DNA of 64,000 bases from the NCBI GenBank assembly GCA_964349125.1, contig CAYGFH010000001.1, positions 644,801 through 708,800 on the forward strand, read 5' to 3'. This DNA comes from an uncultured Gammaproteobacteria bacterium. Lineage in GTDB: Bacteria; Patescibacteriota; Microgenomatia; UBA10105; UBA927. Both the position numbers and the translations under genes were made by a program. Shown here one piece after another: positions 16,519 through 46,539 of the stretch; the stretch's first letter is position 1; each line of letters begins with the position of its first letter. The notes below the pieces were generated by a model. The model saw nothing but the letters and a program-made list of their open reading frames with translations. It did not search any database and was not told the DNA's origin.

Positions 16519-17001
16519 ATGCGAATATTTGGCTTTATTACGGGCTTTTTCATATTACTGGTAGTTTCAGGAGTTATGGTTCCTCGTGTGTTCGCTCAGG
16601 GATCAACGACGACGATGCAAAACAATGCATGTGATCCAATTACCGATCCAGATGCAAAGAGCAAGTGCGAAGCATGTATGGGTGGAGAGACAAATACTGG
16701 TACCTTCACTGCATTAGGGTGCATTTCAACACATCCTGGAGACCTGCTCGGAAAAATTATTGGGCTCGCAATCGGCATGGCTGGCGGAATTGCGTTTTTG
16801 TTGATACTGTTTGGAGGATTTCAAATAATGACAAGCGCTGGCAACCCAGAGCAACTTAATGCTGGTCGCGAATTAGTCAGCTCTGCAATTACGGGACTGT
16901 TACTTATTATTTTCTCTATTTTTATATTACAATTTATCGGGGTGAATCTAATAGGAATTCCGGGGTTTGGAGGAACACCTGGTGCTTCAGGCGGAAGATA
17001 A
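16519..17001 (+). CDS. VirB2/TrbC-like T4SS pilin paralog 1
   Basis: 160 aa. Signal peptide (…PRVFAQ), then two hydrophobic helices separated by a short polar loop (TSAGNPEQLNAGRELVSSAITG), the PF04956-like architecture. It belongs to an 8-member paralog family in this window. Confidence 0.5.
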   Translation: MRIFGFITGFFILLVVSGVMVPRVFAQGSTTTMQNNACDPITDPDAKSKCEACMGGETNTGTFTALGCISTHPGDLLGKIIGLAIGMAGGIAFLLILFGGFQIMTSAGNPEQLNAGRELVSSAITGLLLIIFSIFILQFIGVNLIGIPGFGGTPGASGGR

Positions 17002-17002
17002 T

Positions 17003-17362
17003 ATGAAATACTTAACACAAAATCTATCTATACCGTGGGGAACGGGCCCAGGAGATACAGCTACCATTAAAGGTCCTCTCGGTGATGGAGTAATAGGCGG
17101 TGGAGCAGCAACCGTTGGAGGTTTACTCTCAAGCGCTATGAAATTGGTATTTCTCTTCGGAGGAGTAGGGCTCCTCCTCATGCTGTTGGCGGGTGGCTTT
17201 ACATTTCTCACGAGCGCAGGAGATATGAAAAAACTTGAAAAAGGCAAACAGCAAATCACAAACGCAATACTGGGATTTATCATCATTTATGGAGCGTATT
17301 GGGCGGTTCAGATCTTAGGATTCATATTCGGATTCGAAGCAATCGATACTATTTTCTCCTAA
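17003..17362 (+). CDS. VirB2/TrbC-like T4SS pilin paralog 2
   Basis: Start taken at Met of MKYLTQNL, 1 nt after the pilin-1 stop. It has the same TM-loop-TM pattern (LTSAGDMKKLEKGKQQITNAILGFIIIY). Confidence 0.5.
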   Translation: MKYLTQNLSIPWGTGPGDTATIKGPLGDGVIGGGAATVGGLLSSAMKLVFLFGGVGLLLMLLAGGFTFLTSAGDMKKLEKGKQQITNAILGFIIIYGAYWAVQILGFIFGFEAIDTIFS

Positions 17363-26023: not shown

Positions 26024-26260
26024 TTAAAATCCTTTCTGCAAGATACTCACGAGGAGGGTTATCGTCGACCCGAATAGCATATACAGTCCAATGACTAACA
26101 GTAACGAACACACAACGATTGCGGCAAGGGGCATGACCTTTAACCGCTTAACCAGTATTTTATAGAGCGGTGTGAACGGACCGACTGTCTGAACGGGCAA
26201 ATCGGTAACCTCTTCCCACCGTTTCACAAATTTTTTGAACACTGCATCGTTTGATTTCAT
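26024..26260 (-). CDS. small membrane protein, candidate anti-sigma factor
   Basis: 78 aa. Cytoplasmic N-terminus and a single C-terminal TM. Its start overlaps the stop of the ECF sigma gene (ATGA). Confidence 0.3.
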   Translation of the reverse strand: MKSNDAVFKKFVKRWEEVTDLPVQTVGPFTPLYKILVKRLKVMPLAAIVVCSLLLVIGLYMLFGSTITLLVSILQKGF

Positions 26261-26808
26261 ATGGATATAAAAAGCTCCACAAATGCTTTGCGCGCGCGGA
26301 ACAGTTGTGACTCTGCGCCTTTCATGGATAAGGCGAATTTACTTGCGATGTCAGATACTGACAGATTTTCTACGTATTTTGATACGAGAAGTGATTTGTA
26401 ATGAGGCAACAGTTTACCAAATACCGTCTGTATTTTTTCCTTAAGTAGCACGATGTCCAGCTCCTCTTCCGGATTTTTCTGTGACGATATGAGCGTTTCT
26501 AAATTTGGCATCTGAGAAAATACCATTTGCTTTAATTTTTTGCGTCTGTAAAAATCGATGATTTTATTGTGGCAAATCGCATAGAGGAATGTGGTGATAC
26601 TGGAGTTTCCGTGAAAGTCCCGCAATGCTTCCAAAAAGGCAAATAACGTATCCTGCAGTATTTCTTCGCAATCCGCCGGGTTATTTACTTTTGTCCGAAT
26701 ATACGAGGTGAGTTTCGGCGTGTATCGCCTGTAAAATACCGCCAGTGCCTTCCGATCTCGAGCGAGTATTTGACGAATCAGGAGTGTATCATTAGCGTGA
26801 TCAATCAT
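26257..26808 (-). CDS. RNA polymerase sigma-70 factor, ECF subfamily
   Basis: 183 aa. Region 2 (LQDTLFAFLEALRDF, FLYAICHNKIIDFYRR) and region 4 HTH (LSVSDIASKFALSMKGAESQLFRARKAF). Confidence 0.75.
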   Translation of the reverse strand: MIDHANDTLLIRQILARDRKALAVFYRRYTPKLTSYIRTKVNNPADCEEILQDTLFAFLEALRDFHGNSSITTFLYAICHNKIIDFYRRKKLKQMVFSQMPNLETLISSQKNPEEELDIVLLKEKIQTVFGKLLPHYKSLLVSKYVENLSVSDIASKFALSMKGAESQLFRARKAFVELFISI

Positions 26809-26893: not shown

Positions 26894-26902
26894 ATTAGAT
26901 AT

Positions 26903-27226
26903 ATGGAGCGAGTCTATGCAGCTGTAGAAATCGGAAGTGAGTTCCCTTCATTAACACGCATAACAAGTCTTGGAGGGCTCTTGTCCGTCATCGTGCCAAA
27001 CGCCTTCATGCTGGCAGGGGTCATAGCCTTCCTTTTGTTAGTATTCGCCGGATTTGGTATGATACAGGCTGCGGGATCAGGTGATACAAAGCAAATGGAG
27101 TCAGGTAAAAAAGCGATTACAGGAGCTGTCATCGGCCTTCTCGTCATAATTGGATCGTTCTGGATTATTCAAATACTAGAGACATTAACAGGCATGAAGG
27201 GTCAAATCCTTCCGCCCATGAGATAA
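26903..27226 (+). CDS. VirB2/TrbC-like T4SS pilin paralog 3
   Basis: Start taken at MERVYAAV. Two TM helices flanking the loop IQAAGSGDTKQMESGKKAITGAVIGLLVII. Confidence 0.5.
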   Translation: MERVYAAVEIGSEFPSLTRITSLGGLLSVIVPNAFMLAGVIAFLLLVFAGFGMIQAAGSGDTKQMESGKKAITGAVIGLLVIIGSFWIIQILETLTGMKGQILPPMR

Positions 27227-27233
27227 TACAACT

Positions 27234-27596
27234 ATGTGGAAAGTATACGCAGATGACATTGTGGGTTCCGTGACAAACCCGCTCCCGGCACAGTATAAAA
27301 ATATAATCGGCGGAGGCACAGGTGGGGGACTTATCCTGTTTATGAGTAACATCTTGAGACTGGTGTTCGTCGTTGCCGGAATATTTGCATTTTTTAATTT
27401 CATCGTTGCAGGATTTCAGTACATGAATGCTGGCGGTGATGCTAAGTCGGTTTCGGCAGCGTGGGACAGAATTTGGCAATCGCTGATGGGATTGGTTATT
27501 ATCATTGGCTCTTTTGCGATGGCCGCACTTATGGGACAGGTATTTTTTGGCAATCCGAATGCAATATTAAGCCCGACGATATACGGTCCAAACTAA
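27234..27596 (+). CDS. VirB2/TrbC-like T4SS pilin paralog 4
   Basis: 120 aa. Gly-rich N-terminus, then TM1, loop MNAGGDAKSVSAAWDRIWQSLMGLVIII and TM2. Confidence 0.5.
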   Translation: MWKVYADDIVGSVTNPLPAQYKNIIGGGTGGGLILFMSNILRLVFVVAGIFAFFNFIVAGFQYMNAGGDAKSVSAAWDRIWQSLMGLVIIIGSFAMAALMGQVFFGNPNAILSPTIYGPN

Positions 27597-27597
27597 T

Positions 27598-27975
27598 ATG
27601 ACAAAAGTTCTTGCAGCATCACAACCACTCGGCACAATCGGAGGTGGAAGTTCAGGCGAACTCGGACCTTTTGCAGGGAAAAGTCTTAATAATCCACTTG
27701 ACGCCATAACTGGATACGTTAGTTCCATCGTGGGGATGCTTACGATTTTTGCGAGCATTTGGTTTTTATTTATGTTATTGTTCGCAGGGTATGAGTGGAT
27801 TAGTGCGGGCGGTGATGCCAAAAAAATCGCTTCTGCACGTGATCGCATCACACATGCGTTTGTGGGACTTGTCATTGTCATCGGATCTTGGAGTTTACTC
27901 GCCGTCACAGGACAGTTTTTTGGCTATGATACTTTATTGGGTTCAGGCGCAAATGAATATTTTAAATTAAAATAA
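27598..27975 (+). CDS. VirB2/TrbC-like T4SS pilin paralog 5
   Basis: 125 aa. Loop ISAGGDAKKIASARDRITHAFVGLVIVIG. Starts 2 nt after the previous stop. Confidence 0.5.
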   Translation: MTKVLAASQPLGTIGGGSSGELGPFAGKSLNNPLDAITGYVSSIVGMLTIFASIWFLFMLLFAGYEWISAGGDAKKIASARDRITHAFVGLVIVIGSWSLLAVTGQFFGYDTLLGSGANEYFKLK

Positions 27976-27979
27976 CACC

Positions 27980-28336
27980 ATGAATTCAAAAATCCTTGCA
28001 GCACTGAGCAATCCGGTATTACCCAACACCATCGGTGGTGGGGCAGGAGCAAATTATCAGCAGGGTGGGCGTGCGCTCGGGTCACTTATTAGCGGTCTTG
28101 TCGGAGCGCTGTTTATCGCAGGATTTCTTTTGGCATTCTTCTTCCTCATTACGGGCGGCATTACGTGGATCAGTGCAGGCGGAGATAAAGCAAAACTGGA
28201 AGCTGCACGGGATAGAATCACAAACTCTATCATAGGTATTATCATTGTGGGAGCATCATTTGCATTGACGGCTCTTGTTGCTGGATTCTTCGGATTTGAA
28301 CTGAATACCCTCCCAATACCCACGGTCGGACGGTAA
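27980..28336 (+). CDS. VirB2/TrbC-like T4SS pilin paralog 6
   Basis: 118 aa. Loop ISAGGDKAKLEAARDRITNSIIGIIIVGA. Confidence 0.5.
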   Translation: MNSKILAALSNPVLPNTIGGGAGANYQQGGRALGSLISGLVGALFIAGFLLAFFFLITGGITWISAGGDKAKLEAARDRITNSIIGIIIVGASFALTALVAGFFGFELNTLPIPTVGR

Positions 28337-28353
28337 GTTTCTCAAAGAAGACA

Positions 28354-28400
28354 TTGACATTGCGCGTTATTTTGCGCAACAATGAAAAATAGGATATAAT
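28354..28400 (+). promoter_or_regulatory. internal promoter with near-palindromic operator-like element upstream of pilin paralog 7
   Basis: -35 TTGCGC (28372-28377), 17-nt spacer, -10 TATAAT (28395-28400), and an upstream TTGACA (28354-28359). ATTGCGCG-ttatttt-GCGCAACAAT is an imperfect inverted repeat overlapping the -35. AGGAGG sits 9 nt before the ATG at 28426. Confidence 0.45.
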
Positions 28401-28425
28401 CAATGTATATAAATAGGAGGAACGT

Positions 28426-28755
28426 ATGAAAGTATTTGCAGCAGATCCACAAATCACCATTGGCCAACCATCAAATATTAAAATTGGAGATATCGGCCAA
28501 CTCATTAGTGCTCTTGTGGGAACGCTCCTTATTATCGCAGCACTGCTCGCTTTCTTCTTTCTGATTCTCGGTGGTATTCAGTGGATAACTTCCGGTGGTG
28601 ATAAAGCAGGCATGGAAGCCGCCAGAAACAAAATTACTCATGCGATTGTCGGACTTATCATTGTTGGAGCCGCATGGGCGGTTATGCTCCTCATCCAGAA
28701 CTTTTTGGGAGTCACGATCATTGGCGGCGCGGTAAATTTCCCAAAGCCATATTAA
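28426..28755 (+). CDS. VirB2/TrbC-like T4SS pilin paralog 7
   Basis: 109 aa. Loop ITSGGDKAGMEAARNKITHAIVGLIIVGA. Strong SD. Confidence 0.5.
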   Translation: MKVFAADPQITIGQPSNIKIGDIGQLISALVGTLLIIAALLAFFFLILGGIQWITSGGDKAGMEAARNKITHAIVGLIIVGAAWAVMLLIQNFLGVTIIGGAVNFPKPY

Positions 28756-28875
28756 CAGTGATTCTGGAATCTTGAATAAAGAATCATGGGGTTAGGGCAA
28801 ACGTGTATTGTTCGGTTTTCCATAATTCGTTATTCCTGATTCATTATTAACGCCCTCTCGTGCTACAATATACGT

Positions 28876-29259
28876 ATGAATTTCAAGCGATTTTCTGCAA
28901 ATATCGCGGTTATTGCCACGTCACTGCACCTTGCTCCATACGTTGTTGCTGAAGAACTTAGCACCTACAAAGACACAGATGTCGCTACTCTTAGTTCTCT
29001 CGAGGGATTGTTTAGTAACGCCGTAAGAACCGTGGTCTCTCTCTCCGCGGTAGGACTGTTCCTTATGTTCATCGCGGGCGGGTTTTCATTTTTATTCTCA
29101 GGCGGAGACCAAAAGAAGCTAGAGCAGGCTCGTGGCACCCTTACGAATGCAATTATTGGGCTTGTCGTCATATCATGCGCTTATCTGATCCTTCGAATCA
29201 TTGGAACATTTACGGGCACCTTGGATACCATTACCACATTTAAGATTTTTCAGGAGTAA
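28876..29259 (+). CDS. VirB2/TrbC-like T4SS pilin paralog 8
   Basis: 127 aa. Signal peptide, then loop FSGGDQKKLEQARGTLTNAIIGLVVIS. The upstream TGCTACAAT is -10-like. Confidence 0.5.
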   Translation: MNFKRFSANIAVIATSLHLAPYVVAEELSTYKDTDVATLSSLEGLFSNAVRTVVSLSAVGLFLMFIAGGFSFLFSGGDQKKLEQARGTLTNAIIGLVVISCAYLILRIIGTFTGTLDTITTFKIFQE

Positions 29260-29261
29260 CT

Positions 29262-30785
29262 ATGATTGACGTTCTTACATATATACACAATAATAGGAAG
29301 AGCATGATTCGTCTACTTTCCTCAACTCTACTTTTTATACTTTTTTTTGCAACTCTCCCTTCGGCAAATGTCTATGCGCAAAATCCTGCACCTGCACCCG
29401 TGCAGACATCGTCGTGGAAACAGTCCACACCCTTTTCATTTGGCAGCGCACTTGAAGGGACAGCGATGAATGCCCAATCAGCATGGCACACAGGGACACA
29501 GTACGTCATGTATTCGCTGACCTGTCTTATCACTGGAGCAGATTGTTCATACAAATTAGAGGATTTGCCTGCGAATATGTGTGGAAGCGCGTTGGGACAT
29601 ATAGATAAATCCATCGCAGCAACATTTGTAAATAGGCCTGCAGACACTGGACTGTGGCTCGCTGATACAGGAAGAACATTAGGGTTCCTCCCAAGGGAGG
29701 CAGTAGCGCAGGGTATAGGATTTTCAGGAATGCAACCGTTATTGCCTATTTGGAAAGCATTTCGAAATATTTCGTATATGTTGATGGCCGTTGTCATGAT
29801 CGCACTGGGATTTATGATCATGTTTCGCAAAAAAATAGATCCAAAAACGGTTGTCACTGCACAAAACGCAATTCCTAGAGTGGTGATAGCACTGATACTT
29901 ATCACATTTTCGTACGCTATCGTCGGTGTGCTTATCGATTTTATGTACGTCATCATCTACTTCTTAATTGCGCTGTTTAAGTCAACAGGGCTACTGGATA
30001 ATCCATCGTACCCTGTGTGTTTGGCGTACAAGACGCCTGAATTGCTCTATGGTCAGGGCGGCATGATGGCAAACTTCATGAATATCCCGAAGGATCCCTA
30101 TAGATTAATATTCGGCGCTACAGATAATTTTCTTGCAAACTCAGGCACCCTTTCAGGTATTGGGCTGGTGTTGGCCCTACTGGGAACTGCGGCATCAGTG
30201 CCTCCTGTCGCGACCGGAATTGCCGCTGGTGCGTTTATTGGGCTTCCGATTTTGCATCTTATTATTTCTATAATCATTATCTTTTTGTTCCTGCGATTGG
30301 CATTCTTTTTTCTGGGAGCCTATATACAAATTGTCATTTCACTGTTATTGGCACCGTTGCAGCTATTGTTTGAAGCGGTTCCTGGGAGCACGGCATTTTC
30401 CTCATGGATTTCAAATCTGATAGCGAATCTGGCGGTATTCCCTGTTGGCGCTGCGATGTTTATGCTGTCAAACGTATTTACCCATTTTGCAAATGTTAAT
30501 TCTGGCACTATCTGGGCTCCTCCGTACGCTCCAATATCCGGTAACGCATCGCAACTGTCTGCCATTATTGCTTTAGGTGTGTTGTTTGCCATACCGCAGA
30601 CTGCCGGCGCCATAAAAGAGGCGCTAAAGGCAAAGCCGGTTATGGGTGGTGGCAGTGGCAGTGGCGGCGGATTGCAAAATGCAGCGACGATACTGTCAAT
30701 GGCGTACTATGCACAGTCATTCACTCCACAAGGATTGAAGGATAGGATTTTCGGTGGGGGTGGAGACAAAAAAGGTGGGCATTAA
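29262..30785 (+). CDS. TrbL/VirB6-like polytopic T4SS membrane protein
   Basis: 507 aa. Signal peptide, ~130-aa extracytoplasmic N-terminal domain, at least 6 TM helices and a Gly-rich C-terminal tail. Sits directly after the pilin array (3-nt gap). Confidence 0.45.
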   Translation: MIDVLTYIHNNRKSMIRLLSSTLLFILFFATLPSANVYAQNPAPAPVQTSSWKQSTPFSFGSALEGTAMNAQSAWHTGTQYVMYSLTCLITGADCSYKLEDLPANMCGSALGHIDKSIAATFVNRPADTGLWLADTGRTLGFLPREAVAQGIGFSGMQPLLPIWKAFRNISYMLMAVVMIALGFMIMFRKKIDPKTVVTAQNAIPRVVIALILITFSYAIVGVLIDFMYVIIYFLIALFKSTGLLDNPSYPVCLAYKTPELLYGQGGMMANFMNIPKDPYRLIFGATDNFLANSGTLSGIGLVLALLGTAASVPPVATGIAAGAFIGLPILHLIISIIIIFLFLRLAFFFLGAYIQIVISLLLAPLQLLFEAVPGSTAFSSWISNLIANLAVFPVGAAMFMLSNVFTHFANVNSGTIWAPPYAPISGNASQLSAIIALGVLFAIPQTAGAIKEALKAKPVMGGGSGSGGGLQNAATILSMAYYAQSFTPQGLKDRIFGGGGDKKGGH

Positions 30786-30896: not shown

Positions 30897-33800
30897 TTAA
30901 TGGTGGGCACCACCACCACCACCACCACTGCCTTTACTTCCACCGCCCCCCTCATCATATCCTTCTTTTGCGGTTTTAGCTCCTAACCCAATGGAAATGC
31001 CAAGCCCAGCAAGTCCGGCAAGATAGTATGTATAAATCCTCCAAGGCGCATCGGTGTGATGATGTTTTCCGTCTATTCCTACATATTCCCATATTAATCC
31101 CATTTCTTTTTCCATGTATGTATTCATTCCTGGAGCTGTGGTTCCGAAGGCTTCTTTTAAATCCTTTTGAAGTTGTTCCCACATCCCATGGCGCTCATTT
31201 ATGGTGGTTGCCAAGTCGCCATGATCTCCAACGTTGCCAGTAACTCGCCTAATCGGAGAGTTTTTTAACTGATTAAACACCGATCCGTAAATCAACCAAT
31301 CATCCGCTCTGTCCATTGCGGTAATATTCATCCACGATCCACCAACTACCGCCACGCCTCGTGCCGCAAACTGTCCTCCATATGTAAATAGAATATTTTT
31401 CTTCAAATCAGGGAGAGCTTTCTGGAAAGGTTCAAATGAACGAACACCAAGTAAATCGACAACCATTGTTGCGCTTGCTTGTGCAGATCCATTATCGCCA
31501 GCCACACGAGCAATGCCACATTTCTCAGACTTACCTGATTCTTCTCCTATGTATCCCGACACTCGCTCAACGACATCTGCATTGGAGTGTTTCTTATTTA
31601 CACTATATTGCGAACCAGGAGCCTCCAAGGGATTGTCAAGAAATTTTTCTCTCGACTCAAGATCTTGAACATCAATGTATGTATCAACCATATCGGACAT
31701 AGTTAACCGCTTGAGTTGCGGTTCTTGTGTAACAAAGTTAGATAATTCTTTTTTTAATTTAATAAACTTATCTTTATTCACCCCCATATTTTTACACACA
31801 GTTGTTAGCACCCCATCTTGAATTTCGGTTGGGCCATGATGCCAGTTTATAGGGCCACCGCCAGTTTTTTCAAAAGATAATAGCTCGTCAGTGATACGGT
31901 CGGTGATTTTCATATACTGTATGGCTAGATCTGGTCTGTCTGCGCTTATAGTAGCAGCTTCTTTAGTTTTGATGTGTGAGAAAACTCCTTCAAAATATCC
32001 ACCATTGACCATCGCTTTATATTTTTCTATTGTTTCATAGTGATTGTGCTCAATAAGATCTTGAAAGCTTCTAGTGGTCAGGTATTCTCCCTGTACATGA
32101 AGCACTCCAGGCTGACCATGTTCACCATGCATAAGCTTATGGGCTATATGCTCGCGCTGGTGCGCTGATTCAGCACCAATAAACTCACCACCTAAAATGC
32201 GCTTATAATCGCCAACACCGATCCCCCTTGTCCAGGCATCTGCGCCGTATATAAGATCGTACATATCGATTTTAGGTTTACATACCCACGACGCACCCTC
32301 ATATCCGTACCCACCTATCACAAGGTCAGCATACTTCATACCCTCTTTGAAATTTATTACCTCCTCCAATTGATGGCGTGTGAGCGCTTCTATGGTTTTT
32401 GGTGGGTTTTTTACAGGATATCCTTTTAAATCATGACCAAAATGGAATCCTAACATCTGCTCAATACGCTCTTTTCGCTTTCCGGGATCCATTTCATATA
32501 CATCAAGTGCATCTGCGGCGATTCTTAACTTATATGATGGATCTTGCATTGCTTGATCCACCATTATTTTGGTTGCCTCTGTCACGCCTGTTATTTCTGC
32601 ATATTGATGAGCCATTACACGCATGTGAAGTTTGCTTGCAGGATCCATAAGATCCCAACGCTCAATAAGATGTTCATACATTTGCCTCGCCTGTAGATAT
32701 TGTGACAATCCAGATTCTCCGCCATACTTAGGGCCTTGAAAATTTTGACCGTCACTGGCGCCAGGGCTTAAGGCTTTTGTACGCGTATAGACCTCGCGAA
32801 GTGTGACCGTGTTAAGCTTTTGCGCTTCCAATACTACCCCTTTTATGACATCACTACTAAACTCCATTGTCTCATTTTGAATACCGATTTTTCGACAAAG
32901 TCCAGAATAATCATATTTACCATCAAGGGATTCCTTTATTGATGAGCGATTTTGGAAATGATTAGTAAAGTGTTCTCCAAATTCTTTTTTGTTTGCTTCC
33001 AGAACGTACTGCAAATCAAACCGCATACTATCCATTTCCTTATCACCGATTCGCTGTTTATGTCCACGCTCAAAATTTCGTTTATAAATATCGCCCAAGT
33101 CGTCTAATATGTGGTTTGCAGTTCCATTGATAAATCCTCCGTCAGCCTTGATGTCATAAATACCTCTATCCCCTAAAGCACCTAACACACTCACTTGTGT
33201 TTTTTTAATATCCATTCCCATCTTCATAACACCATAGGAGTAATCGATGTTGTCTTTTGCTTGAATGATACGGCTAATTTCTCGTAGTCTTTTGACACGA
33301 TCTTTAAAGAATGGGTGCTCCTTCATTTTAACCAGATCAGTTCTATAAACAGGTGTTCCATCAGGATTCGTCAGCGGCTTTTTATCTGGACCGAGAAAAC
33401 GCTCTGTTGTCACCTCAATAGGAGTTTTTGTTGCATCGGCGATTTCCTTTCGCCATTCAGGGTTTTCCATAAGCTCTTGAATGTCAGATTCATATTTAGA
33501 GCTTGCGTAATACTCAACGACTTGCTGTAGTTGTCGTTGAATTTGTTGCGGAACCGCGCCTCGAGTGTCAAACCCGACAGCTTCATTGTATTTACGATAC
33601 AGTTGGTTGAACCCCCATTCAGGGTATAATACCGTCAATTTTCGCACATCTGAGGCTAGAAACATGGAACTGTACTGATCCATAATACTTTCTCCACGCT
33701 CGGGTCTATTACGATATATTTCTTCTTGAAGCCTACGTGACTCTGTCTCTGCAGCATCAGCCATTGATTCAATCACATTCTGAGGATTACCCACTTTATT

Positions 33801-34994
33801 CAGTTGATCTGCGGTAAAACCGCTATGTACATCTTGCAAGTCATCAAGAACTTTTCGCAGTCTTCTAGGGTCTCCTTTAAATCCTGGGGTTGAATCCATC
33901 ATGTATTGTACTTTTTTGAGATACTCGTCTAGGTCGCGGTTTCCGCTTTTTTTGGTGGCATCCCACACTTCTGCGCCACTTTTCCCTCCGCCACCAAAGC
34001 CTGACGCTTTCATCATCTCCGTTTTGATCGACGGATCTCCAAGAATGTCAGACACTTCAATTACAAACTTGGTTTGTATCACTTTTTGCTGTGACGTCCG
34101 CCCTGGTCCACCAATTTCTTTTGCATATTGCTTTAGCGCATCTTGTAGAGGGGTGTTTTCAAGTACTTTTTTTGCTAAAAAGGTAGCTGCGTCGTCTGGG
34201 ATATTCATTAGTCTGATTTTTGTTTCTATACCAACGTCGCCTCCCGCCATAACTATCAATATATCGTTAAGACTTTCTTTTATGTCTTCGTGCACATCCT
34301 CTATTGTGTCTTCTTCATTTTTCGCTTTCTTTTTTCCTTCTGGCTTCTGTCTATTTTCCATGACTTTTTCTTCGAGAACCGACGCCATGCGTGTGCGCAA
34401 CATATCTGATGCGTCATAAATTTTTGAAGGAATACTTGCATTGACACCTTTAAGATAGGCGACGCGTTCGTGTATTTGTTTTGCAGCCTTTGCTATCTCA
34501 ATTTGCTCGGATAAGACCATTTCAGAACGCAAAGAATGTACCAACTGAGCTTCTTTTGCAACCAAATACACTGGATCATTTCTAAATGAGGATTCAGCTA
34601 TATCTGCAGCAACAACAGCGACTATATCGGACTTTGGGACGCCATTATCCAATAAGAATTTTACGTTCCTTCCCGTCTCGGGCGTTGCAAGAGACAACTT
34701 GGCGGCCTCTACTTTAACCGAAGTTGCGTTAATTGATGGGGCTGCCTTATTATCTATAACCGCATTAACGACCTCTGTGTGCCACTGTGCGGTTCCTTCT
34801 TTAGCGGTAATTACTGCTTTCGCTAATGGTTTCACCGACTCTTTCATCTTTATGCCGCCAGGTTGAGTTTTTTCCTGTATTGCTACTCTTGGTTTTTCAG
34901 GGCGACGAAGTCTCATGCCCTTTGCCATCATTCCTGCTTCAGCAAAAATTTTTAATGTCTCCATTAGGCCTTGCGCTTGATCTTCTTCTTTCAT
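30897..34994 (-). CDS. giant protein (1365 aa) of unknown function with C-terminal membrane anchor and Gly-rich tail
   Basis: Uninterrupted 4.1-kb ORF. No signal peptide and no recognisable catalytic motif by eye. Single C-terminal TM (YYLAGLAGLGISIGLGA) followed by GGGGSKGSGGGGGGAHH. Confidence 0.5.
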   Translation of the reverse strand: MKEEDQAQGLMETLKIFAEAGMMAKGMRLRRPEKPRVAIQEKTQPGGIKMKESVKPLAKAVITAKEGTAQWHTEVVNAVIDNKAAPSINATSVKVEAAKLSLATPETGRNVKFLLDNGVPKSDIVAVVAADIAESSFRNDPVYLVAKEAQLVHSLRSEMVLSEQIEIAKAAKQIHERVAYLKGVNASIPSKIYDASDMLRTRMASVLEEKVMENRQKPEGKKKAKNEEDTIEDVHEDIKESLNDILIVMAGGDVGIETKIRLMNIPDDAATFLAKKVLENTPLQDALKQYAKEIGGPGRTSQQKVIQTKFVIEVSDILGDPSIKTEMMKASGFGGGGKSGAEVWDATKKSGNRDLDEYLKKVQYMMDSTPGFKGDPRRLRKVLDDLQDVHSGFTADQLNKVGNPQNVIESMADAAETESRRLQEEIYRNRPERGESIMDQYSSMFLASDVRKLTVLYPEWGFNQLYRKYNEAVGFDTRGAVPQQIQRQLQQVVEYYASSKYESDIQELMENPEWRKEIADATKTPIEVTTERFLGPDKKPLTNPDGTPVYRTDLVKMKEHPFFKDRVKRLREISRIIQAKDNIDYSYGVMKMGMDIKKTQVSVLGALGDRGIYDIKADGGFINGTANHILDDLGDIYKRNFERGHKQRIGDKEMDSMRFDLQYVLEANKKEFGEHFTNHFQNRSSIKESLDGKYDYSGLCRKIGIQNETMEFSSDVIKGVVLEAQKLNTVTLREVYTRTKALSPGASDGQNFQGPKYGGESGLSQYLQARQMYEHLIERWDLMDPASKLHMRVMAHQYAEITGVTEATKIMVDQAMQDPSYKLRIAADALDVYEMDPGKRKERIEQMLGFHFGHDLKGYPVKNPPKTIEALTRHQLEEVINFKEGMKYADLVIGGYGYEGASWVCKPKIDMYDLIYGADAWTRGIGVGDYKRILGGEFIGAESAHQREHIAHKLMHGEHGQPGVLHVQGEYLTTRSFQDLIEHNHYETIEKYKAMVNGGYFEGVFSHIKTKEAATISADRPDLAIQYMKITDRITDELLSFEKTGGGPINWHHGPTEIQDGVLTTVCKNMGVNKDKFIKLKKELSNFVTQEPQLKRLTMSDMVDTYIDVQDLESREKFLDNPLEAPGSQYSVNKKHSNADVVERVSGYIGEESGKSEKCGIARVAGDNGSAQASATMVVDLLGVRSFEPFQKALPDLKKNILFTYGGQFAARGVAVVGGSWMNITAMDRADDWLIYGSVFNQLKNSPIRRVTGNVGDHGDLATTINERHGMWEQLQKDLKEAFGTTAPGMNTYMEKEMGLIWEYVGIDGKHHHTDAPWRIYTYYLAGLAGLGISIGLGAKTAKEGYDEGGGGSKGSGGGGGGAHH

Positions 34995-35041: not shown

Positions 35042-35596
35042 TTACTGATACAAGCTGTGGGCTTGTATGTACAGCGATATGTGCTGGGGCACCAGTTGAC
35101 TAATGGGCAATCCTCTTTTCACCCTCTCCCGAATTTTTGTGGAAGAGATATTGCTCCCCACAAGCAATTCATCGGAGATAACATGCATGTTTGGATACAA
35201 TGGCTCATTTGGATATCCATACCGTGGAAATACCAGAAAAGGTAGCTCTTGTAATAGCTGCTGCCACTCCTGCCATAAATGCAGTGTTGGCAGTTGATCA
35301 GAGCCGATGATAAATGAGTAGGTGTGTTCTTTGGGCAAAAAAGGAAGGATGTGAACGGTTTCTCCGTCCAGTTGATTATCTATTTCGATAGTAGAGACCT
35401 GAGTTCTTGGAAGTTCTATAAGTCGGGTCATAGCAAGTCTATCTTCTACAGAAGCAACGGGTTTGGGAGGGCTTTGATGGAAGTTTGGCAAAAACCATAC
35501 TTCATCAGTCTCGGTAAAATCCAGCACCTGCTGGGCAATCATCAAGTGCCCGATGTGAGGGGGGTTAAATGCGCCACCGAGAAGTGCTATCTTCAT
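35042..35596 (-). CDS. nadD: nicotinate-nucleotide adenylyltransferase
   Basis: 184 aa. ALLGGAFNPPHIGHL (the H.GH nucleotidyltransferase motif) and a C-terminal ISST.IR motif. Confidence 0.8.
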   Translation of the reverse strand: MKIALLGGAFNPPHIGHLMIAQQVLDFTETDEVWFLPNFHQSPPKPVASVEDRLAMTRLIELPRTQVSTIEIDNQLDGETVHILPFLPKEHTYSFIIGSDQLPTLHLWQEWQQLLQELPFLVFPRYGYPNEPLYPNMHVISDELLVGSNISSTKIRERVKRGLPISQLVPQHISLYIQAHSLYQ

Positions 35597-37785
35597 GGTT
35601 GTTTCAGTATTCGTTTGGTATATCGCTCTCTCGATGAACGAATCACTTTTTCCCTATTTTGGTTACGAGACTTTGGAAGAGGCAGGGTTTTAGCAGAGAA
35701 CGGCTGGCTCGTATGATTGTCTATGGATAATTTCATTATCATCTCATAATTCCCCAACGCTACCAACTCACTCTCCGCGTATTTGTCACCAAATTCGCGC
35801 ACCAGGCTTCGGGCGTCTGCGGCGCCGACGCTGAAAGACATAATTGAACCCGCATTACCAAAAATTGCTTTTTGGACATCCTCATCGATTTGTCCTATGT
35901 ACTGGTTAGCAAGCGTTAGATCAAGCCGATATTTTCGTGCTTCCGATAAAATTTTAATAAACGATGTTGTTGCGAAATTCTGAAACTCGTCGACATAGAG
36001 ATAAAAGTCTCTGCGTTCAGTTTCTGCTAAGTACACGCGGTTCATGGCTGCAAGCTGAAATTTAGTGATTATCATAGCCCCCAATAAGGCGCTGCTATCC
36101 TCTCCTAGTTTTCCTTGCGACAGATTTACCAGCACAATTTTACCCTGATTCATGACATCTTCAAGATCTACTGTGGATGCACTGCTTCCCACGATATTTC
36201 TTATAGTCTGAGACGATAAGAATTGTCCCACCTTGTTGAGAATTGGAGACACGGCTTCCGAACGCATTTGTGGACTCATTTTGCCAAACTCGTTTACCCA
36301 GAAATTCTTGAGCACCTGATCGTTCATCTTTTCCACCACTTTAGCTCTATATGTTTCGTTGGTTAACAGCTCCGGGACCTGCAAGAGCGTACTACCCGGG
36401 ACGTTTGTGAGGGTGAGGATTGTGTTACGAAGGATATATTCAAGTCTGGGCCCCCAGCTTAAATGATAGAGTTTATAGAAAATAGAGACTATGCCCGAAG
36501 ATACAAGCTCTTTGTACGCGGGGTTTCTAATTTCAAGCGGATTCAAATGAAAAGGGTATTCTAAGTCTGATGGATCCAAATACACCACATCATTGATTCT
36601 ATGTGAGGGAACATAATCTAGCAAAATATCACAGAGATCACCATGCGGATCAACCACTGCGACGCCTTCGCCATTTTTCATATCATTGATAGCCATATTG
36701 GCAATCATTGTGGATTTTCCTGTTCCTGTTTTTCCAATTATGTACATATGTTTTCGCCTATCATCTTTTTTCACGCCGAACGTACACAGCTTGTTTTTGT
36801 ATTCGGTTCGACCAAAAAAGTTAATTTGTTTCTTCTCCTCTTCATTTTCCGTTGCAATTGGCAGATTTTCCGGTGCCTCCCCCGTTAATTGCGATCCCCA
36901 TGAGATATTTTTAATCATAGAAAGCGTGAGCCCTGGCGGGTGCCATAATGATGCAAGCTCAGAGGCGTTTAGTATTTGGTTTCTTGGCAGTAGATCTCCA
37001 CTCCTCGTAATCATCGCTTTTTCTAGGCGTTTTTTGTTCCAGAATGCGGGTTCTGTGAGCTGTAAGGAATTTCCTCCACCCAATGTATAGACGCCAAACG
37101 TCCCACCCAAAGAGTGAAGCAATTCTGTCGCACGATGCTCGCTGGCCGCTACGGTAGCAATTCTGACTGCTGCCGTAAATCCAACCTGTGCGATTTTTGT
37201 TTCTATGAGCCTTGCGTGTGGATGAGCTTTCATCCGACCGGGAGTCGGAGAGCTCACATCGGGAATTCCACGGGCTACCACTGCCGCTGCGGTATGCTGC
37301 CAACCGTGCCCGGCAGGAGAAATCCAGACCTGTACAGCCGCCGCTTCCCCTACCGGCAATTTCGCCATCTGTCCCAAAACGCTTGCAAGAACATCCAGCT
37401 CTTTTACCTCTTTATATGTTTTGAGCGGGTAATAAAATGAGTTCGATAGCGTCAGGTGAGCGGCGGCATGTGGAAGAGTAAAAAAATGCGGAGCATAATC
37501 AGCAGACTGAGAAAGCAGCACTTTCGGGTACTGCGCCGTGATCTGACTTTCAACATAGGATTGGGAGAGCGATGGCATGCCAATAAAAAAATGCAGCCGC
37601 GAGTTCACGGATACTAATTCAAGGCTATAAAACTTTGGCGCATGTCGAGGCCCAAAAAGCTTGGCGAAAAATCCCCCATGCCCTCCTGTTGCACCAAGCG
37701 CGGCGTACACCTGTTCCATTGCGGCTGGTGTTTCCTCACTTTCTCTGGAATTTTTCACCTCCAGCAGTACAAACGAAGACTCCAT
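35593..37785 (-). CDS. VirD4/TraG-like type IV coupling-protein ATPase with atypical soluble N-terminal domain
   Basis: 730 aa. Walker A YIIGKTGTGKST, VVDPHGD, Walker B LYVDEFQNF and a TLANQYIGQID motif in the C-terminal ~400 aa. The N-terminal ~330 aa have no TM helices and no recognised motif. Confidence 0.6.
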   Translation of the reverse strand: MESSFVLLEVKNSRESEETPAAMEQVYAALGATGGHGGFFAKLFGPRHAPKFYSLELVSVNSRLHFFIGMPSLSQSYVESQITAQYPKVLLSQSADYAPHFFTLPHAAAHLTLSNSFYYPLKTYKEVKELDVLASVLGQMAKLPVGEAAAVQVWISPAGHGWQHTAAAVVARGIPDVSSPTPGRMKAHPHARLIETKIAQVGFTAAVRIATVAASEHRATELLHSLGGTFGVYTLGGGNSLQLTEPAFWNKKRLEKAMITRSGDLLPRNQILNASELASLWHPPGLTLSMIKNISWGSQLTGEAPENLPIATENEEEKKQINFFGRTEYKNKLCTFGVKKDDRRKHMYIIGKTGTGKSTMIANMAINDMKNGEGVAVVDPHGDLCDILLDYVPSHRINDVVYLDPSDLEYPFHLNPLEIRNPAYKELVSSGIVSIFYKLYHLSWGPRLEYILRNTILTLTNVPGSTLLQVPELLTNETYRAKVVEKMNDQVLKNFWVNEFGKMSPQMRSEAVSPILNKVGQFLSSQTIRNIVGSSASTVDLEDVMNQGKIVLVNLSQGKLGEDSSALLGAMIITKFQLAAMNRVYLAETERRDFYLYVDEFQNFATTSFIKILSEARKYRLDLTLANQYIGQIDEDVQKAIFGNAGSIMSFSVGAADARSLVREFGDKYAESELVALGNYEMIMKLSIDNHTSQPFSAKTLPLPKSRNQNREKVIRSSRERYTKRILKQP

Positions 37786-37953: not shown

Positions 37954-39324
37954 ATGGATCAGCATCCTGTCCCACAAAATGTCACCACATTTCAGTTCCG
38001 GCTTATCGGAGACATGACCATTAAGCAATTCGGGCACCTCGCGGGCGGCGCCATCCTTGCCTACATTTCGTACAAACTCCCGCTGCCGTTCTTTTTTTCT
38101 TGGCCACTTACCATTATCTTTGCTCTCGGCGGCATTGGATTTGCGTTTGTTCCCATCGAAGAACGACCGATGGACGTTTGGGTGCTGTCTTTTTTGAAAA
38201 ATGTATATAGTCCAACTATATACGTGTGGGAGAGGTCGCCAAGCGTAATCACACCTGTGGTTTCACGGGTACAACCAGTGCACCCTAGTGCCCCTGTTAT
38301 CGCACCGCGTCAACAGCCATCGCCCCCCGCAGTCAGACCTCCGTTGCCGCAGGGGCAAATGGCAGCGCAAGTGCACCCGACCCAACCTGTTGCACAGAAA
38401 TCAGCTGCAAGCGTTGTAAATACCATGTATGCCGCGAAACTCGCCACAGGACAACAGTACACCTCACAGGGACAATTGCCTCAACAGCAAGCGCCTGGAA
38501 TGTTTGACTGGCTATCATCACTCTTTTGGCCAAAGACACGGATACAGATCCCTCAGCCCACACCCCAACAGGCCCCTCATATGGCAACACCTTCTGTGGT
38601 GGGTAATCATCTTGATATGTCCACTCCCCCGGCTGTTGCAAAACAGCCTATCAACACGCCTCCACGAGATTCTGAAGAGAAAAAAGAAAAACTGGATGAA
38701 AAACTCTCTGTACTTAAGCACGAACTGGAAGACCACTCCATTTCTCAGGCGCGAATTTTGGAACTTCAAAAGCAACTAACGGAAGTGCTGATGCAAAAAG
38801 ATATAATGGCCGCCGAAATGCAGGCCATGCAAAAACAACTAAACACGGTGGCTGCTCCCCAATCAGCTTTGCCAGTACGGCCAACGATCCCCTCGGCACA
38901 ACAACAACAGGTACCCCAGCCCACGCCACAACAGAAGCAACCGACAGTAAAGATTATTACGCCCGAAGGGGCCGTACGAGCGGGGCTTCCACGACTGACG
39001 ACATTCCCCAACGTGGTAACAGGCATTACAAAGGACAGCGATAACAATCTTCTTCCTGGTGTGCTTGTTACTGTAAAGGATAAGGATGGAGTCCCTGTGC
39101 GCGCTCTCAAAACAAACAGGCTTGGTCAGTTTGCCGCATCGACTCCGCTATCAAATGGTGTGTACTTTGTAGAGATAGAGGATCCAAGACAACGATATAC
39201 CTTTGACCGGGTGCAAATAACACTCAACGGGTCCATTGTCCCGGCATTGGAAATTATTACAAAGAGTCAAAAGCAGATATCACGGGATAAACTGGCAAAA
39301 GAATTATTTGGAAACACAGCATAA
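37954..39324 (+). CDS. PrgI/VirB3-like membrane protein with long Pro/Gln-rich linker, coiled coil and C-terminal beta domain
   Basis: 456 aa. The N-terminus FQFRLIGDMTIKQFGHLAGGAILAYISYKLPLPFFFSWPLTIIFALGGIGFAFVPIEERPMDVWVLSFL resembles the PrgI/VirB3 family (two TM). This is followed by ~200 aa of P/Q-rich low complexity, a coiled coil, and a C-terminal region with a carboxypeptidase-regulatory-like beta pattern (LPGVLVTVKDKDGVPV). Confidence 0.4.
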   Translation: MDQHPVPQNVTTFQFRLIGDMTIKQFGHLAGGAILAYISYKLPLPFFFSWPLTIIFALGGIGFAFVPIEERPMDVWVLSFLKNVYSPTIYVWERSPSVITPVVSRVQPVHPSAPVIAPRQQPSPPAVRPPLPQGQMAAQVHPTQPVAQKSAASVVNTMYAAKLATGQQYTSQGQLPQQQAPGMFDWLSSLFWPKTRIQIPQPTPQQAPHMATPSVVGNHLDMSTPPAVAKQPINTPPRDSEEKKEKLDEKLSVLKHELEDHSISQARILELQKQLTEVLMQKDIMAAEMQAMQKQLNTVAAPQSALPVRPTIPSAQQQQVPQPTPQQKQPTVKIITPEGAVRAGLPRLTTFPNVVTGITKDSDNNLLPGVLVTVKDKDGVPVRALKTNRLGQFAASTPLSNGVYFVEIEDPRQRYTFDRVQITLNGSIVPALEIITKSQKQISRDKLAKELFGNTA

Positions 39325-39325
39325 T

Positions 39326-45227: not shown

Positions 45228-45252
45228 GTGCGGAATTTATGTTATCCGCACA
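45228..45252. terminator. 7-bp stem hairpin between convergent genes (GTGCGGA-atttatgttat-TCCGCAC)
   Basis: Inverted repeat seen directly. It overlaps the dnaN stop codon. No clear U-tract. Confidence 0.25.
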
Positions 45253-46340: not shown

Positions 46341-46383
46341 ATGTGTTTAGAATTATTACTATAGTATTAGTAATAGAAAGCGG

Positions 46384-46530
46384 TGTGGAAAAGTGTATGT
46401 CTTTTTCATGTGTAAGTCAACGGATCGCTCTGATCGAACAAGTAGTGTGTTTGATCGGAGAAAACCCTGTGGATCCTAATGTGGATAACTGTGTGGATAA
46501 CCATCATTAAAATGTGAATAAGTGGATAAG
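46384..46530. other. oriC candidate: DnaA-box cluster between dnaN and dnaA
   Basis: TGTGGATAA-type boxes (= TTATCCACA on the minus strand) at 46468-76 (TGTGGATCC), 46480-88, 46492-500, 46513-21 (TGTGAATAA), 46522-30 (GTGGATAAG) and 46384-92 (TGTGGAAAA). All share one orientation. An AT-rich tract sits at 46351-46380. Confidence 0.6.
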
Positions 46531-46539
46531 CAAAACAAA

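Follow-up and report, generated by a model that had tools for sequence, protein, structure and literature searches.

Reviews name the pilin array as the most unusual feature of the Patescibacterial T4SS. Whether the genes of such an array encode interchangeable pilins or distinct subunits is the question raised by six consecutive genes, p1 to p6, in the 64,000-nucleotide stretch of DNA analysed here (the window).

Six tandem paralogs and two distant ones

The initial annotation described six tandem paralogous genes for two-helix membrane proteins of 107-127 aa, and their open reading frames, a shared loop block and the Pfam family PF18895 (T4SS_pilin) all bear this out. On the forward strand lie p1 (26903..27226, 107 aa), p2 (27234..27596, 120 aa), p3 (27598..27975, 125 aa), p4 (27980..28336, 118 aa), p5 (28426..28755, 109 aa) and p6 (28876..29259, 127 aa), with successive gaps of 7, 1, 4, 89 and 120 nt and only 2 nt between p6 and the gene of a VirB6-like protein. 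Two further paralogs had been placed about 10 kb away, and both are real, being matched by PF18895 and by our local profile: p7 (16519..17001, forward strand, 160 aa, Cys-rich in its N-terminal domain and bearing a signal peptide) and p8 (17003..17362, forward strand, 119 aa from the ATG at 17003 or 131 aa from a TTG at 16967) lie 10 kb upstream of the array.

The proteins p1-p6 share one layout, in which an N-terminal tail is followed by TM1, a loop block (xGGDxKKxEAARxxITxAxxGLxI) and TM2. Each paralog has two Kyte-Doolittle peaks, and the AF2 model of p4 is a helical hairpin (helices at residues 31-65 and 70-103, with block-mean pLDDT of ~87-97 across residues 41-100). The loop between the helices carries 2-4 Lys/Arg, which are most of the basic residues. 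The N-termini follow the pattern M-x-K-V-[YFL]-A-[AD], after which come 20-35 polar or Gly-rich residues ahead of TM1. Gly-rich and signal-peptide-like N-termini had been set against each other in the initial annotation; the tails do differ most among the paralogs, and a signal-peptide-like N-terminus is limited to p6 (MNFKRFSANIAVIATSLHLAPYVVA ahead of EE) and p7 (MRIFGFITGFFILLVVSGVMVPRVFA ahead of QG). Visual inspection and hydropathy revealed no hydrophobic h-region before TM1 in p1-p5, that is, no signal peptide.

We found the open reading frames of p1-p5 not to be extendable upstream, yet gene callers start p1 at 26813 (137 aa). We rejected this longer form: because a conserved promoter (26864-26893) falls inside the extension and the gene is called at 106-107 aa, without the extension, in the related strains L002 and L003, 26903 is by these sequence criteria the better start, as had been preferred initially.

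Family assignment

All eight paralogs are matched by PF18895, with E-values for p1-p6 between 4.6e-10 and 3.4e-4 (p1 5.4e-7, p2 3.4e-4, p3 1.2e-6, p4 1.3e-7, p5 7.7e-9, p6 4.6e-10). Relative to the gathering score of 26.6 bits, p1 (30.0), p3 (29.0), p4 (32.1), p5 (35.9), p6 (39.9) and p7 (26.8) are at or above the cut-off, and p2 (21.1) and p8 (25.7; E 1.2e-5) are just under it; the local profile finds these two with E 1e-36 and E 8.8e-24, respectively. The same family is matched by 116 of 119 array members from related loci. Because an independent curated model matches all six, the similarity of p1-p6 is, on this profile evidence, not compositional.

The proteins might instead have been unrelated small membrane proteins, holin-like or conferring bacteriocin immunity, that mimic pilins by composition. 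The matches pointing that way are marginal (Phage_holin_3_6 at E 0.33; Colicin_V in 2 of the 119 relatives), while PF18895 is the top and near-universal match, the loop motif is position-specific and the array stands in fixed synteny with T4SS genes, so that we consider this explanation refuted and barely worth entertaining.

The description as 'VirB2/TrbC-like' fared less evenly, holding for architecture and T4SS context only. None of the eight window paralogs matched PF04956 (TrbC/VirB2) at E <= 1, and among the relatives it matched only 4 of 119 (best E 4.9e-5). The TrbC model PRK13871 met p8 at E 0.59. When the paralogs were aligned by hhalign with an alignment of 120 VirB2 sequences of the Agrobacterium/Rhizobium type, probabilities were 0.6-27% (0.1-3.5% for the reversed control), in a comparison where the VirB2 alignment is narrow (at least 57% identity to its query) and a broader profile might do better. 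Only p5, at 27%, rose over the reversed control, which is too low for homology, and no usable signal came from hhalign with Agrobacterium-type VirB2, whether the family was used as a whole or orthogroup by orthogroup. Fold searches for pilins returned generic helical hairpins alone and did not discriminate, and a profile of p4 orthologues found nothing meaningful among PDB sequences (best E ~1).

Type IV pilin families, also put forward initially for comparison, are absent from the Pfam scans of the window proteins and the 119 relatives. The paralogs have no class III signal peptide (a short basic leader ending in Gly and followed by a hydrophobic N-terminal helix), and neither a prepilin leader nor an N-methylation motif can be seen in their sequences. 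Weak similarity to NF045849 (Mbov_0395 family) was found in six of the eight paralogs (E 5e-5 to 2e-3, 17-23 bits against a cut-off of 40), and similarity to the actinobacterial DUF6112 (PF19607) in 17 of the 119 relatives.

A monoderm-type T4SS locus next to dnaA

The T4SS pilin-like assignment made at the outset is supported by PF18895, by the two-helix hairpin and by the neighbouring genes for VirB6-like, VirB3/PrgI, TrsD, VirB4, T4CP and hydrolase proteins. Downstream of p6 lies the gene of a 507-aa polytopic membrane protein (29262..30785, forward strand), syntenic in all related loci. This protein had no match in Pfam, NCBIfam or PDB sequences, and searching PDB sequences with its alignment gave nothing. 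Its AF2 model (pLDDT 76) had TrwI/VirB6 of R388 as all of its top five Foldseek PDB matches (E 0.016-0.37, probability 0.82-1.0, TM-score 0.28/0.45); by predicted fold, the protein appears to resemble VirB6.

On the reverse strand, divergent from p1, is a gene for an ECF-type sigma factor (26257..26808; Sigma70_r2 and r4_2; TIGR02937 at 81 bits against a cut-off of 42.9). It adjoins the array in every Gottesmanbacteria locus that reaches far enough upstream (L002-L004, L007-L013, L015, L017 and L019-L026; also L027 and L028). Overlapping it by 4 nt is a gene for a 78-aa single-pass membrane protein (26024..26260, reverse strand; TM at residues 45-63), conserved in position in L001-L004 and without a family match, which we infer to be a candidate anti-sigma factor. 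Also on the reverse strand, a 1365-aa protein (30897..34994) with a Gly-rich C-terminus and no signal peptide or TM segment is syntenic and very fast-evolving (20-58% identity to homologues in the same position); that it is a substrate or an accessory protein is speculation.

Further downstream are genes for a VirD4-like coupling ATPase (T4CP; 35593..37785, reverse strand; TrwB_AAD_bind and TraG-D_C; NF045973, CD1115 family, E 1.6e-9) and, on the forward strand, a PrgI/VirB3-like protein with a C-terminal beta-sandwich domain (37954..39324; PF12666 PrgI, 32 bits against a cut-off of 27), a TrsD-like or VirB4 N-terminal-like protein (39236..39985; NF045975 E 5.7e-8; NF041427 TrsD E 0.003), a VirB4 ATPase (39992..41926; TraG P-loop, AAA_10) and an M23 peptidoglycan hydrolase with a VirB1-type role (41930..44242; PF01551 E 7.5e-12). 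The VirB4 gene lies 10.7 kb downstream of the array, and its product is of the monoderm (CD1110 / MPF-FATA) type according to the NF045971 model (394.7 bits against a cut-off of 325). The window's VirB4 and TrsD-like proteins also match the corresponding mycoplasma ICE ATPase model. The locus is bordered by dnaN and dnaA (45237..47943, reverse strand) in the replication origin region, and the cumulative GC-skew minimum falls at ~38-42 kb of the window. No relaxase was found within the window. The nearest homologues carry the labels Gottesmanbacteria, Microgenomates or Patescibacteria, and the locus is, as judged from its genes, a chromosomal, origin-proximal, monoderm-type T4SS of an ultrasmall Candidatus Gottesmanbacteria bacterium (Microgenomatia, Patescibacteria).

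Three predicted transcription units

The unit opened by p1 is preceded by TTGACA (26864-26869) and TACACT (26888-26893) on the forward strand, 18 nt apart and ending 9 nt before the ATG. Of the 15 sigma-p1 spacers listed, 9 show this promoter clearly, the remaining ones being short and without it, and the transcript of p1-p4 is predicted to be leaderless or near-leaderless. An ECF-type promoter was also sought upstream of p1, where the conserved elements turned out to be sigma-70-like instead; the link between array and ECF sigma factor is for this reason one of synteny.

The p4-p5 spacer carries a double sigma-70-type promoter followed by a ribosome-binding site (28354..28420, forward strand), with TTGACA (28354-28359), 12 nt, TTGCGCAACAAT (28372-28383), 11 nt, TATAAT (28395-28400) and AGGAGG (28415-28420). 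Over 23 loci, TTGACA is exact in 22, a TATAAT-like box is present in 21 and the Shine-Dalgarno sequence in all 23; the block with the palindrome, its 12-nt spacing fixed, occurs in 20. The AGGAGG before p5 is the only consensus ribosome-binding site of the array, and p5 is one of only three among 58 window genes with a six-base Shine-Dalgarno match (five genes have at least five bases).

In the p5-p6 spacer, an extended -10 box, TGCTACAAT (28861..28869, forward strand), ends 6 nt before the ATG of p6. A -10-like box 5-9 nt ahead of this ATG is kept in most loci, where the spacer varies in length from 24 to 137 nt, and p6 and the VirB6-like gene are predicted to share a leaderless-type transcript. 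A long, imperfect hairpin in the same spacer was considered as a conserved attenuator and rejected (z only -1.85, and absent where spacers are short). A scan of 26000-31000 for consensus terminators found none inside the array.

Promoter-like sequences in both long spacers had been proposed initially, and their elements are indeed conserved between species that have reached saturation at synonymous sites. The array thus shows three predicted transcription units: p1-p4, p5, and p6 with the VirB6-like gene.

A fixed set of orthologues under purifying selection

With the p4 profile we found 20 Gottesmanbacteria species loci (L007-L026), four of which end early at a contig end. In all 20 the order of sigma gene, p1 to p6 and VirB6-like gene is collinear. 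In a neighbour-joining (NJ) tree, which carries no bootstrap support values and for which start codons in other loci were set heuristically, each array position forms a pure clade (for example, p1 n=21, p2 n=23, p3 n=25), and the nearest neighbour from other loci occupied the same array position in 144 of 144 cases. In Microgenomatia-like arrays that are more distant, both the gene order and the one-to-one orthology can still be recognised, and these comparisons show the six-member set to be ancient and fixed.

Substitution patterns show strong purifying selection on the array members: dN/dS of the pilins is 0-0.07 where computable, saturated dS leaving p6, the VirB6-like gene and the 1365-aa gene without a value. 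Relative to strain L003, dN is 0.000 for p5, 0.011 for p2 and p3, 0.021 for p1, 0.029 for p4, 0.087 for p6 and 0.22 for the VirB6-like gene; between strains it ranges over 0.000-0.019 for p5 and 0.087-0.318 for p6, the fastest-evolving pilin. The p5 protein is identical in strains whose synonymous sites approach saturation, and its mean pairwise identity is 0.79, against 0.55-0.64 for the other positions. Orthologues of p4 share 57-94% identity, with NPVLP..IGGG invariant at the N-terminus, and N- and C-terminal motifs that are presumably extracytoplasmic are conserved among orthologues.

These data bear on whether the genes encode interchangeable or antigenically variable major pilins, used singly or diversified for evasion or host-strain matching. 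Antigenic diversification had been suggested initially, a published survey raises the same reading (PMC12102498), and Bartonella and Anaplasma offer a precedent that it cites. The paralogs agree with such variation in that array members are merely 27-34% identical to p1 and differ most in their N-terminal tails, in that two internal promoters could permit differential expression, and in that p6, the VirB6-like protein and the 1365-aa neighbour diverge fast between strains. Set against this are the unchanged gene order and one-to-one correspondence of orthologues in all 20 species loci, the low dN/dS together with a p5 that stays unchanged despite near-saturated synonymous sites, and motifs in the exposed tails that do not vary; within the Gottesmanbacteria loci examined, array members were not seen to be gained or lost in particular lineages, and the pilin array of Southlakia has been reported as essential (PMC10633639). 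We therefore regard variable pilins as unlikely, and for p1-p5 as largely refuted. The other suggestion made initially, major and minor pilins, fits the data.

A possible heteromeric assembly

The genes p1-p6 probably encode six distinct, non-interchangeable PF18895 pilin-like subunits of the Gottesmanbacteria T4SS, which would work as follows. Each protein would be inserted in the membrane so that its two termini face outwards and its basic loop faces the cytoplasm. Of the six, p5 is the most conserved and is predicted to have the highest expression. Its identity is the highest, and it alone in the array has a consensus ribosome-binding site, downstream of a conserved double promoter, which makes it the likely major subunit; its conservation could instead reflect more interaction partners rather than abundance. 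The proteins p1-p4 and p6 would be low-copy specialised subunits of a base, adaptor or tip. With VirB4 providing the power, subunits drawn out of the membrane may be built up on the VirB6-like platform into a pilus, or a conduit resembling a stalk, extending to the host cell that the epibiont needs.

Some observations speak against a pilus. The signal peptide of VirB2, TraA and TrbC is missing from p1-p5, and VirB2/TrbC homology is not detectable in the sequences of the window proteins, for which the fold searches are non-discriminating. Pilin modules occur in other lineages as fusions of 2-16 within one polypeptide, an arrangement that is hard to reconcile with a classical conjugative pilus built by extracting single subunits. 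We know of no filament seen in any Patescibacterium.

By analogy with the pilus-independent channel role of VirB2, the six proteins could instead make no pilus and form a heteromeric ring or channel lining in the membrane around the VirB6-like protein. The fusions, which give proteins with many TM helices, the missing signal peptides, the repeated weak NF045849 similarity and the DUF6112 similarity in relatives all agree with such a lining, and monoderm MPF-FATA systems are not known for pili (PMC12102498, PMC12857230). It is not obvious why a lining would need one member to be highly expressed from a strong promoter of its own, and the conserved extracytoplasmic motifs at both termini suggest contacts beyond the membrane; we hold it to be rather doubtful.

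In its most specific form, the proposal of distinct pilin-like subunits becomes an obligate heteromeric T4SS pilus or stalk of six VirB2-like classes, with p5 as the bulk, p1-p4 and p6 as fixed low-copy members and nucleation by a highly divergent VirB6. Here p6 might substitute for the missing VirB5, and the same assembly would exist in covalent form as the multi-module 'polypilin' fusions of other lineages of the CPR. We offer this form tentatively, as one that may be right but is on balance improbable; if true, a conjugative-type filament would for the first time be known to be heteropolymeric, and for the first time to occur in a monoderm.

Comparison with known systems

The pilins VirB2, TrbC and TraA of diderm T4SS (PF04956) are, like the present proteins, of ~110-125 aa, with two hydrophobic helices, a short basic loop and a Gly-rich segment after the N-terminus, and are genetically linked to VirB6, VirB3 and VirB4. 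The mature VirB2 sequence starts QSAGGG. They differ in their long signal peptide, in showing no detectable sequence or profile similarity and in belonging to diderms, whereas the present system is of the monoderm type. VirB2 systems have one major pilin and a VirB5 tip protein; here there are six co-conserved paralogs.

The Mbov_0395 family (NF045849, a 'pilin-like conjugal transfer protein' of mycoplasma ICEs) and DUF6112 likewise comprise small two-TM proteins of monoderm conjugation systems, where they are known in one copy and not as an ordered array. Bartonella, Anaplasma and Rickettsia, host-dependent bacteria too, likewise have several VirB2-type genes in tandem; there the copies are read as recent variable duplicates serving antigenic variation or host range, whereas those described here are ancient and each is conserved. 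Type IV pili and type II pseudopili follow the same inferred logic of one abundant and several conserved low-copy subunits encoded together, with an unrelated protein family and assembly machinery.

Closest are the arrays of other Patescibacteria. A survey recorded 441 arrays of 2-11 pilin genes, with a mean intra-array identity of 25% (maximum 54%), named Microgenomatia as one of the two array-richest classes and reported dnaA/dnaN adjacency for the T4SS (Quinonero-Coronel et al. 2025, PMC12102498). Such arrays share with the present one the tandem PF18895 genes, low paralog identity and a chromosomal MPF-FATA-like T4SS near dnaA in which no relaxase was found. For Southlakia epibionticum ML1 to grow as an epibiont, the pilin array and the T4SS are both essential (Wang et al. 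2023, PMC10633639; PMC12857230), the Patescibacterial T4SS being the first shown to be essential for the growth of its bearer (PMC11665869, PMC12857230). The Southlakia array has six pilins according to a review (PMC12857230), a likeness to ours in number; one difference is the T4CP-like gene of the window, no counterpart of which was recognised in Southlakia.

The array as an object is thus already published. What goes beyond the literature is the collinear module, the purifying selection, the distinction of p5 and the predicted VirB6-like fold of the 507-aa neighbour, a candidate for the VirB6 that sequence searches rarely find in Microgenomatia. For experiments, p5 as the putative major subunit, and p6 with the VirB6-like protein as a fast-evolving module, are the targets. 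Whereas the survey stresses variability and host-strain adaptation (PMC12102498), the array described here is an ancient fixed set of six and not a variable repertoire, with ordered orthogroups, purifying selection and a distinguished p5, and the question moves from variation for host range to heteromeric architecture.

Architecture of the pilin-like array

Six ORFs lie in tandem on the forward strand between positions 26903 and 29259: p1 (26903-27226, 107 aa), p2 (27234-27596, 120 aa), p3 (27598-27975, 125 aa), p4 (27980-28336, 118 aa), p5 (28426-28755, 109 aa), and p6 (28876-29259, 127 aa). They are separated by 7, 1, 4, 89, and 120 nt and are followed, after 2 nt, by an ORF of 507 aa. When aligned, the proteins show 27-34% identity to p1 and a common layout of an N-terminal tail, a first transmembrane helix (TM1), a loop block GGDxKKxEAARxxITxAxxGL, and a second helix (TM2), with two strong hydropathy peaks in each. 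The inter-helix loop carries 2-4 Lys/Arg residues, which suggests that it is cytoplasmic and that the N- and C-termini are both outside.

A profile of the six proteins recovered exactly two further members in the window (p7 and p8), at 16519-17001 and 16967/17003-17362. The Pfam T4SS_pilin model PF18895 matched all eight paralogs (E 4.6e-10 to 3.4e-4), six of them at or above the gathering score. The initial annotation had described six tandem paralogs of one architecture with almost no spacing apart from two longer spacers, and two more copies 10 kb away; the ORFs, alignment, hydropathy, measured gaps and profile searches bear this out. As an independent model matches all eight, the similarity is not merely compositional, and an unrelated small-membrane-protein family is excluded. 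Gene callers place the start of p1 at 26813. This start was rejected, with a conserved promoter falling within the extension and two related loci (L002 and L003) calling 106-107 aa without it, and the originally proposed start at 26903 was upheld.

Elsewhere in the window, a complete mevalonate-pathway operon (18081-25275, reverse strand), followed by uppS (17367-18077), includes a thiolase/HMG-CoA synthase/DUF35 (OB_ChsH2_C) trio typical of archaea; a complete operon is notable given the reduced CPR genome. Three tRNA-Ser genes cluster at 8315-8764, apart from a fourth at 5382-5471, tRNA-Ser(CGA). One clustered copy (8679-8764, forward strand, Rfam 54 bits) was called with anticodon ACT; an A34 tRNA-Ser is unusual in bacteria. 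A tmRNA gene at 10977-11395 (reverse strand, Rfam 108 bits) was not reported by ARAGORN.

Conservation across related loci

Related loci were collected by exact-protein look-up (L001-L006) and by scanning genomes with a profile of p4 (L007-L030), and all their ORFs were compared by BLAST to the window proteins. The 20 Gottesmanbacteria species loci (L007-L026) all carry a divergent ECF sigma gene, p1 through p6, and the 507-aa, VirB6-like gene, with four of them stopping at a contig end; the large convergent protein is detectable as a homologue in about half. In a neighbour-joining tree of 178 pilins, every array position formed a pure clade of 21-25 members, and the nearest neighbour from another locus occupied the same array position in 144 of 144 cases. 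The more distant arrays (L027-L030, one labelled Woesebacteria), with up to ten genes, are still collinear with p1 to p6. Together, collinear order and pure position clades, distant arrays included, indicate that the pilin duplications are older than the radiation of the Gottesmanbacteria lineage.

Against the closest distinct strain, dS was 0.7-1.6, which is near saturation, and dN/dS was 0-0.07. In comparison with strain L003, dN was 0.000 for p5, 0.011 for p2 and p3, 0.021 for p1, 0.029 for p4, 0.087 for p6, 0.22 for the VirB6-like protein, and 0.32 for the 1365-aa neighbour encoded beyond it. Mean pairwise identity within orthogroups was likewise highest for p5 (0.79, versus 0.55-0.64 for the other five), a rank free of p5 bias because most loci were retrieved with the p4 profile. 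The extracytoplasmic tails are partly invariant, as in NPVLP..IGGG of p4. Antigenic diversification had been proposed for the paralogs. For p1-p5, variation of this kind, or in host range, is poorly supported given their one-to-one order across L007-L026, pure position clades, invariant tail motifs, and low dN/dS, and we regard it as very improbable. The same fixed orthogroups are those of the reading we prefer, a set of specialised subunits.

Promoters and ribosome-binding sites

The three non-coding stretches before p1, p5, and p6 were compared by phylogenetic footprinting. Before p1, a conserved TTGACA-N18-TACACT element ends 9 nt from the ATG. The element before p5 is TTGACA-N12-TTGCGCAACAAT-N11-TATAAT followed by a consensus AGGAGG site, and can be read as a pair of sigma-70-type promoters that overlap: TTGACA/AACAAT (spacer 17-18 nt) and TTGCGC/TATAAT (spacer 17 nt). 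All 23 loci compared have a Shine-Dalgarno site; 22 have the exact TTGACA, 21 a TATAAT-like box, and 20 the central block at the fixed spacing. Within the central block lies a perfect 8-bp palindrome, TTGCGCAA (28372-28379), whose spacing is constant across most related genomes; it could double as a -35 element and an operator. Before p6, an extended -10 box (TGCTACAAT) stands 6 nt from the ATG and is kept although the spacer ranges from 24 to 137 nt; so placed, the box implies that p6 and the VirB6-like gene share a leaderless transcript. The promoter-like sequences noted earlier in both long spacers thus proved to be conserved across related loci.

A Shine-Dalgarno match of at least 5 bases was found for 5 of 58 genes scanned, with p5 among the three best and none for p1-p4 or p6. 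In many window genes the start codon is preceded, at 6-9 nt, by a -10-like box (e.g. 26888-26902, 28861-28875, and 16507-16518, and also upstream of the starts at 34994 on the reverse and 37954 on the forward strand); this, together with the rarity of Shine-Dalgarno sites, points to frequent leaderless mRNAs in the genome. From its expression signals together with its conservation, we infer that p5 is the best candidate for an abundant major subunit.

The surrounding T4SS locus

The array sits within a monoderm-type T4SS locus. Family matches identified a VirD4-like coupling ATPase (35593-37785, reverse strand) and, on the forward strand, a PrgI/VirB3-like protein (37954-39324), a TrsD-like protein (39236-39985), a VirB4 of the CD1110 family (39992-41926, 394.7 bits versus a cut-off of 325), and an M23 peptidoglycan hydrolase (41930-44242). 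No relaxase was found among the window ORFs scanned for families, and dnaN and dnaA lie immediately beyond the locus. Every window protein tested was 100% identical to its counterpart on an 809-kb metagenomic contig (ENA ERZ27247837). Named homologues of p4 and the 507-aa protein belong to Candidatus Gottesmanbacteria, the Microgenomates group or Patescibacteria.

Family searches gave no match for the 507-aa protein (29262-30785, forward strand), a polytopic protein predicted to be co-transcribed with p6. With its AlphaFold (AF2) model (pLDDT 76), the best five Foldseek PDB matches were all TrwI/VirB6 chains of the R388 T4SS (E 0.016-0.37, probability 0.82-1.0), a predicted likeness weak in score and specific in identity. 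VirB6 homologues are scarce in Microgenomatia, and extreme divergence has been proposed (PMC12102498); its predicted fold makes the 507-aa protein a candidate for the VirB6 component that sequence searches rarely find there.

The 1365-aa protein (30897-34994, reverse strand) lacks a signal peptide, TM segment, or family match. Its gene is syntenic with the array and the fastest-evolving in the module (20-58% identity between species), and its Gly-rich C-terminus, GGGGSKGSGGGGGGAHH, resembles GGGGDKKGGH of the VirB6-like protein; a role as T4SS substrate or as accessory protein is conceivable. Divergent from the array are an ECF-type sigma gene and, overlapping it, a gene for a single-pass membrane protein of 78 aa that may be an anti-sigma factor (26024-26808, reverse strand). 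The pair is divergent in every Gottesmanbacteria locus reaching far enough upstream, and a weaker sigma homologue (29-33% identity) adjoins two more distant arrays. The promoters of the array themselves appear sigma-70-like.

Our preferred reading, held with moderate confidence, is that p1-p6 are a fixed set of specialised pilin-like subunits, p5 being the major one, which a VirB4-driven machine would assemble on the VirB6-like protein into a pilus or stalk-like conduit directed at a host.

N-termini and fused pilins

No signal peptide was found in p1-p5, whose ORFs allow no upstream extension. Their N-termini (window 26903-28460) follow M-x-K/R-V-[YFL]-A-[AD]. This pattern resembles the c-region, around the cleavage site, in the signal-peptide-like N-termini of p7 (..PRVFA|QG) and p6 (..YVVA|EE), but comes with no hydrophobic core; it could be a processing motif or a relic.

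The six-protein profile matched 66,595 representative proteins in a library of 1.84 billion. Its top scorers (P0361-P0510) are single polypeptides of 2-16 tandem pilin modules, such as a signal peptide plus six modules in 552 aa and 16 modules in 1775 aa. A six-module fusion gene lies inside a pilin array (locus L031, 1777-3435), and its DNA translation equals the protein exactly. The parts of the Patescibacterial T4SS pilin literature covered by a term search held no mention of such multi-module 'polypilins'. Covalently joined modules argue that several would act side by side and are awkward for a filament made by extracting single subunits; they keep alive a purely membrane-embedded assembly, which we nevertheless consider unlikely.

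Relation to known systems

In contrast to canonical VirB2/TrbC pilins, no window protein matched PF04956 at E ≤ 1. Comparison by hhalign of the family or single orthogroups with 120 Agrobacterium/Rhizobium-type VirB2 sequences, collected with a query 98% identical to a database VirB2, gave a probability of at most 27%; only p5 exceeded the reversed control, at a value far too low to argue for homology. Among 119 array members of related loci, 4 matched PF04956 (best E 4.9e-5) and 17 matched DUF6112, while NF045849, the mycoplasma ICE 'pilin-like conjugal transfer protein', matched 6 of the 8 window paralogs (E 5e-5 to 2e-3). These matches form weak bridges. The label 'VirB2/TrbC-like' therefore holds for architecture, context, and a curated sister family, and not for demonstrable PF04956 membership. 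The likeness to monoderm ICE components is a hint that monoderm systems may have possessed the small hairpin protein ancestrally instead of acquiring it from diderm systems.

In the Saccharibacterium Southlakia epibionticum, a predicted pilin series is essential within an essential T4SS cluster (Wang et al. 2023, PMC10633639); a 2025 review called its six divergent VirB2-like pilins remarkable and speculated on a monoderm T4SS pilus (PMC12857230). A survey based on PF18895 (Quinonero-Coronel et al. 2025, PMC12102498) counted 441 pilin arrays, each of 2-11 genes, across 383 Patescibacterial assemblies, most frequently in Microgenomatia and Saccharimonadia, with a within-array mean identity of 25% and loci often near dnaA and usually without a relaxase. 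The array is thus a published phenomenon, correctly rediscovered in a lineage not individually described before; new here are the ordered orthogroups, the setting apart of p5, and the VirB6 candidate.
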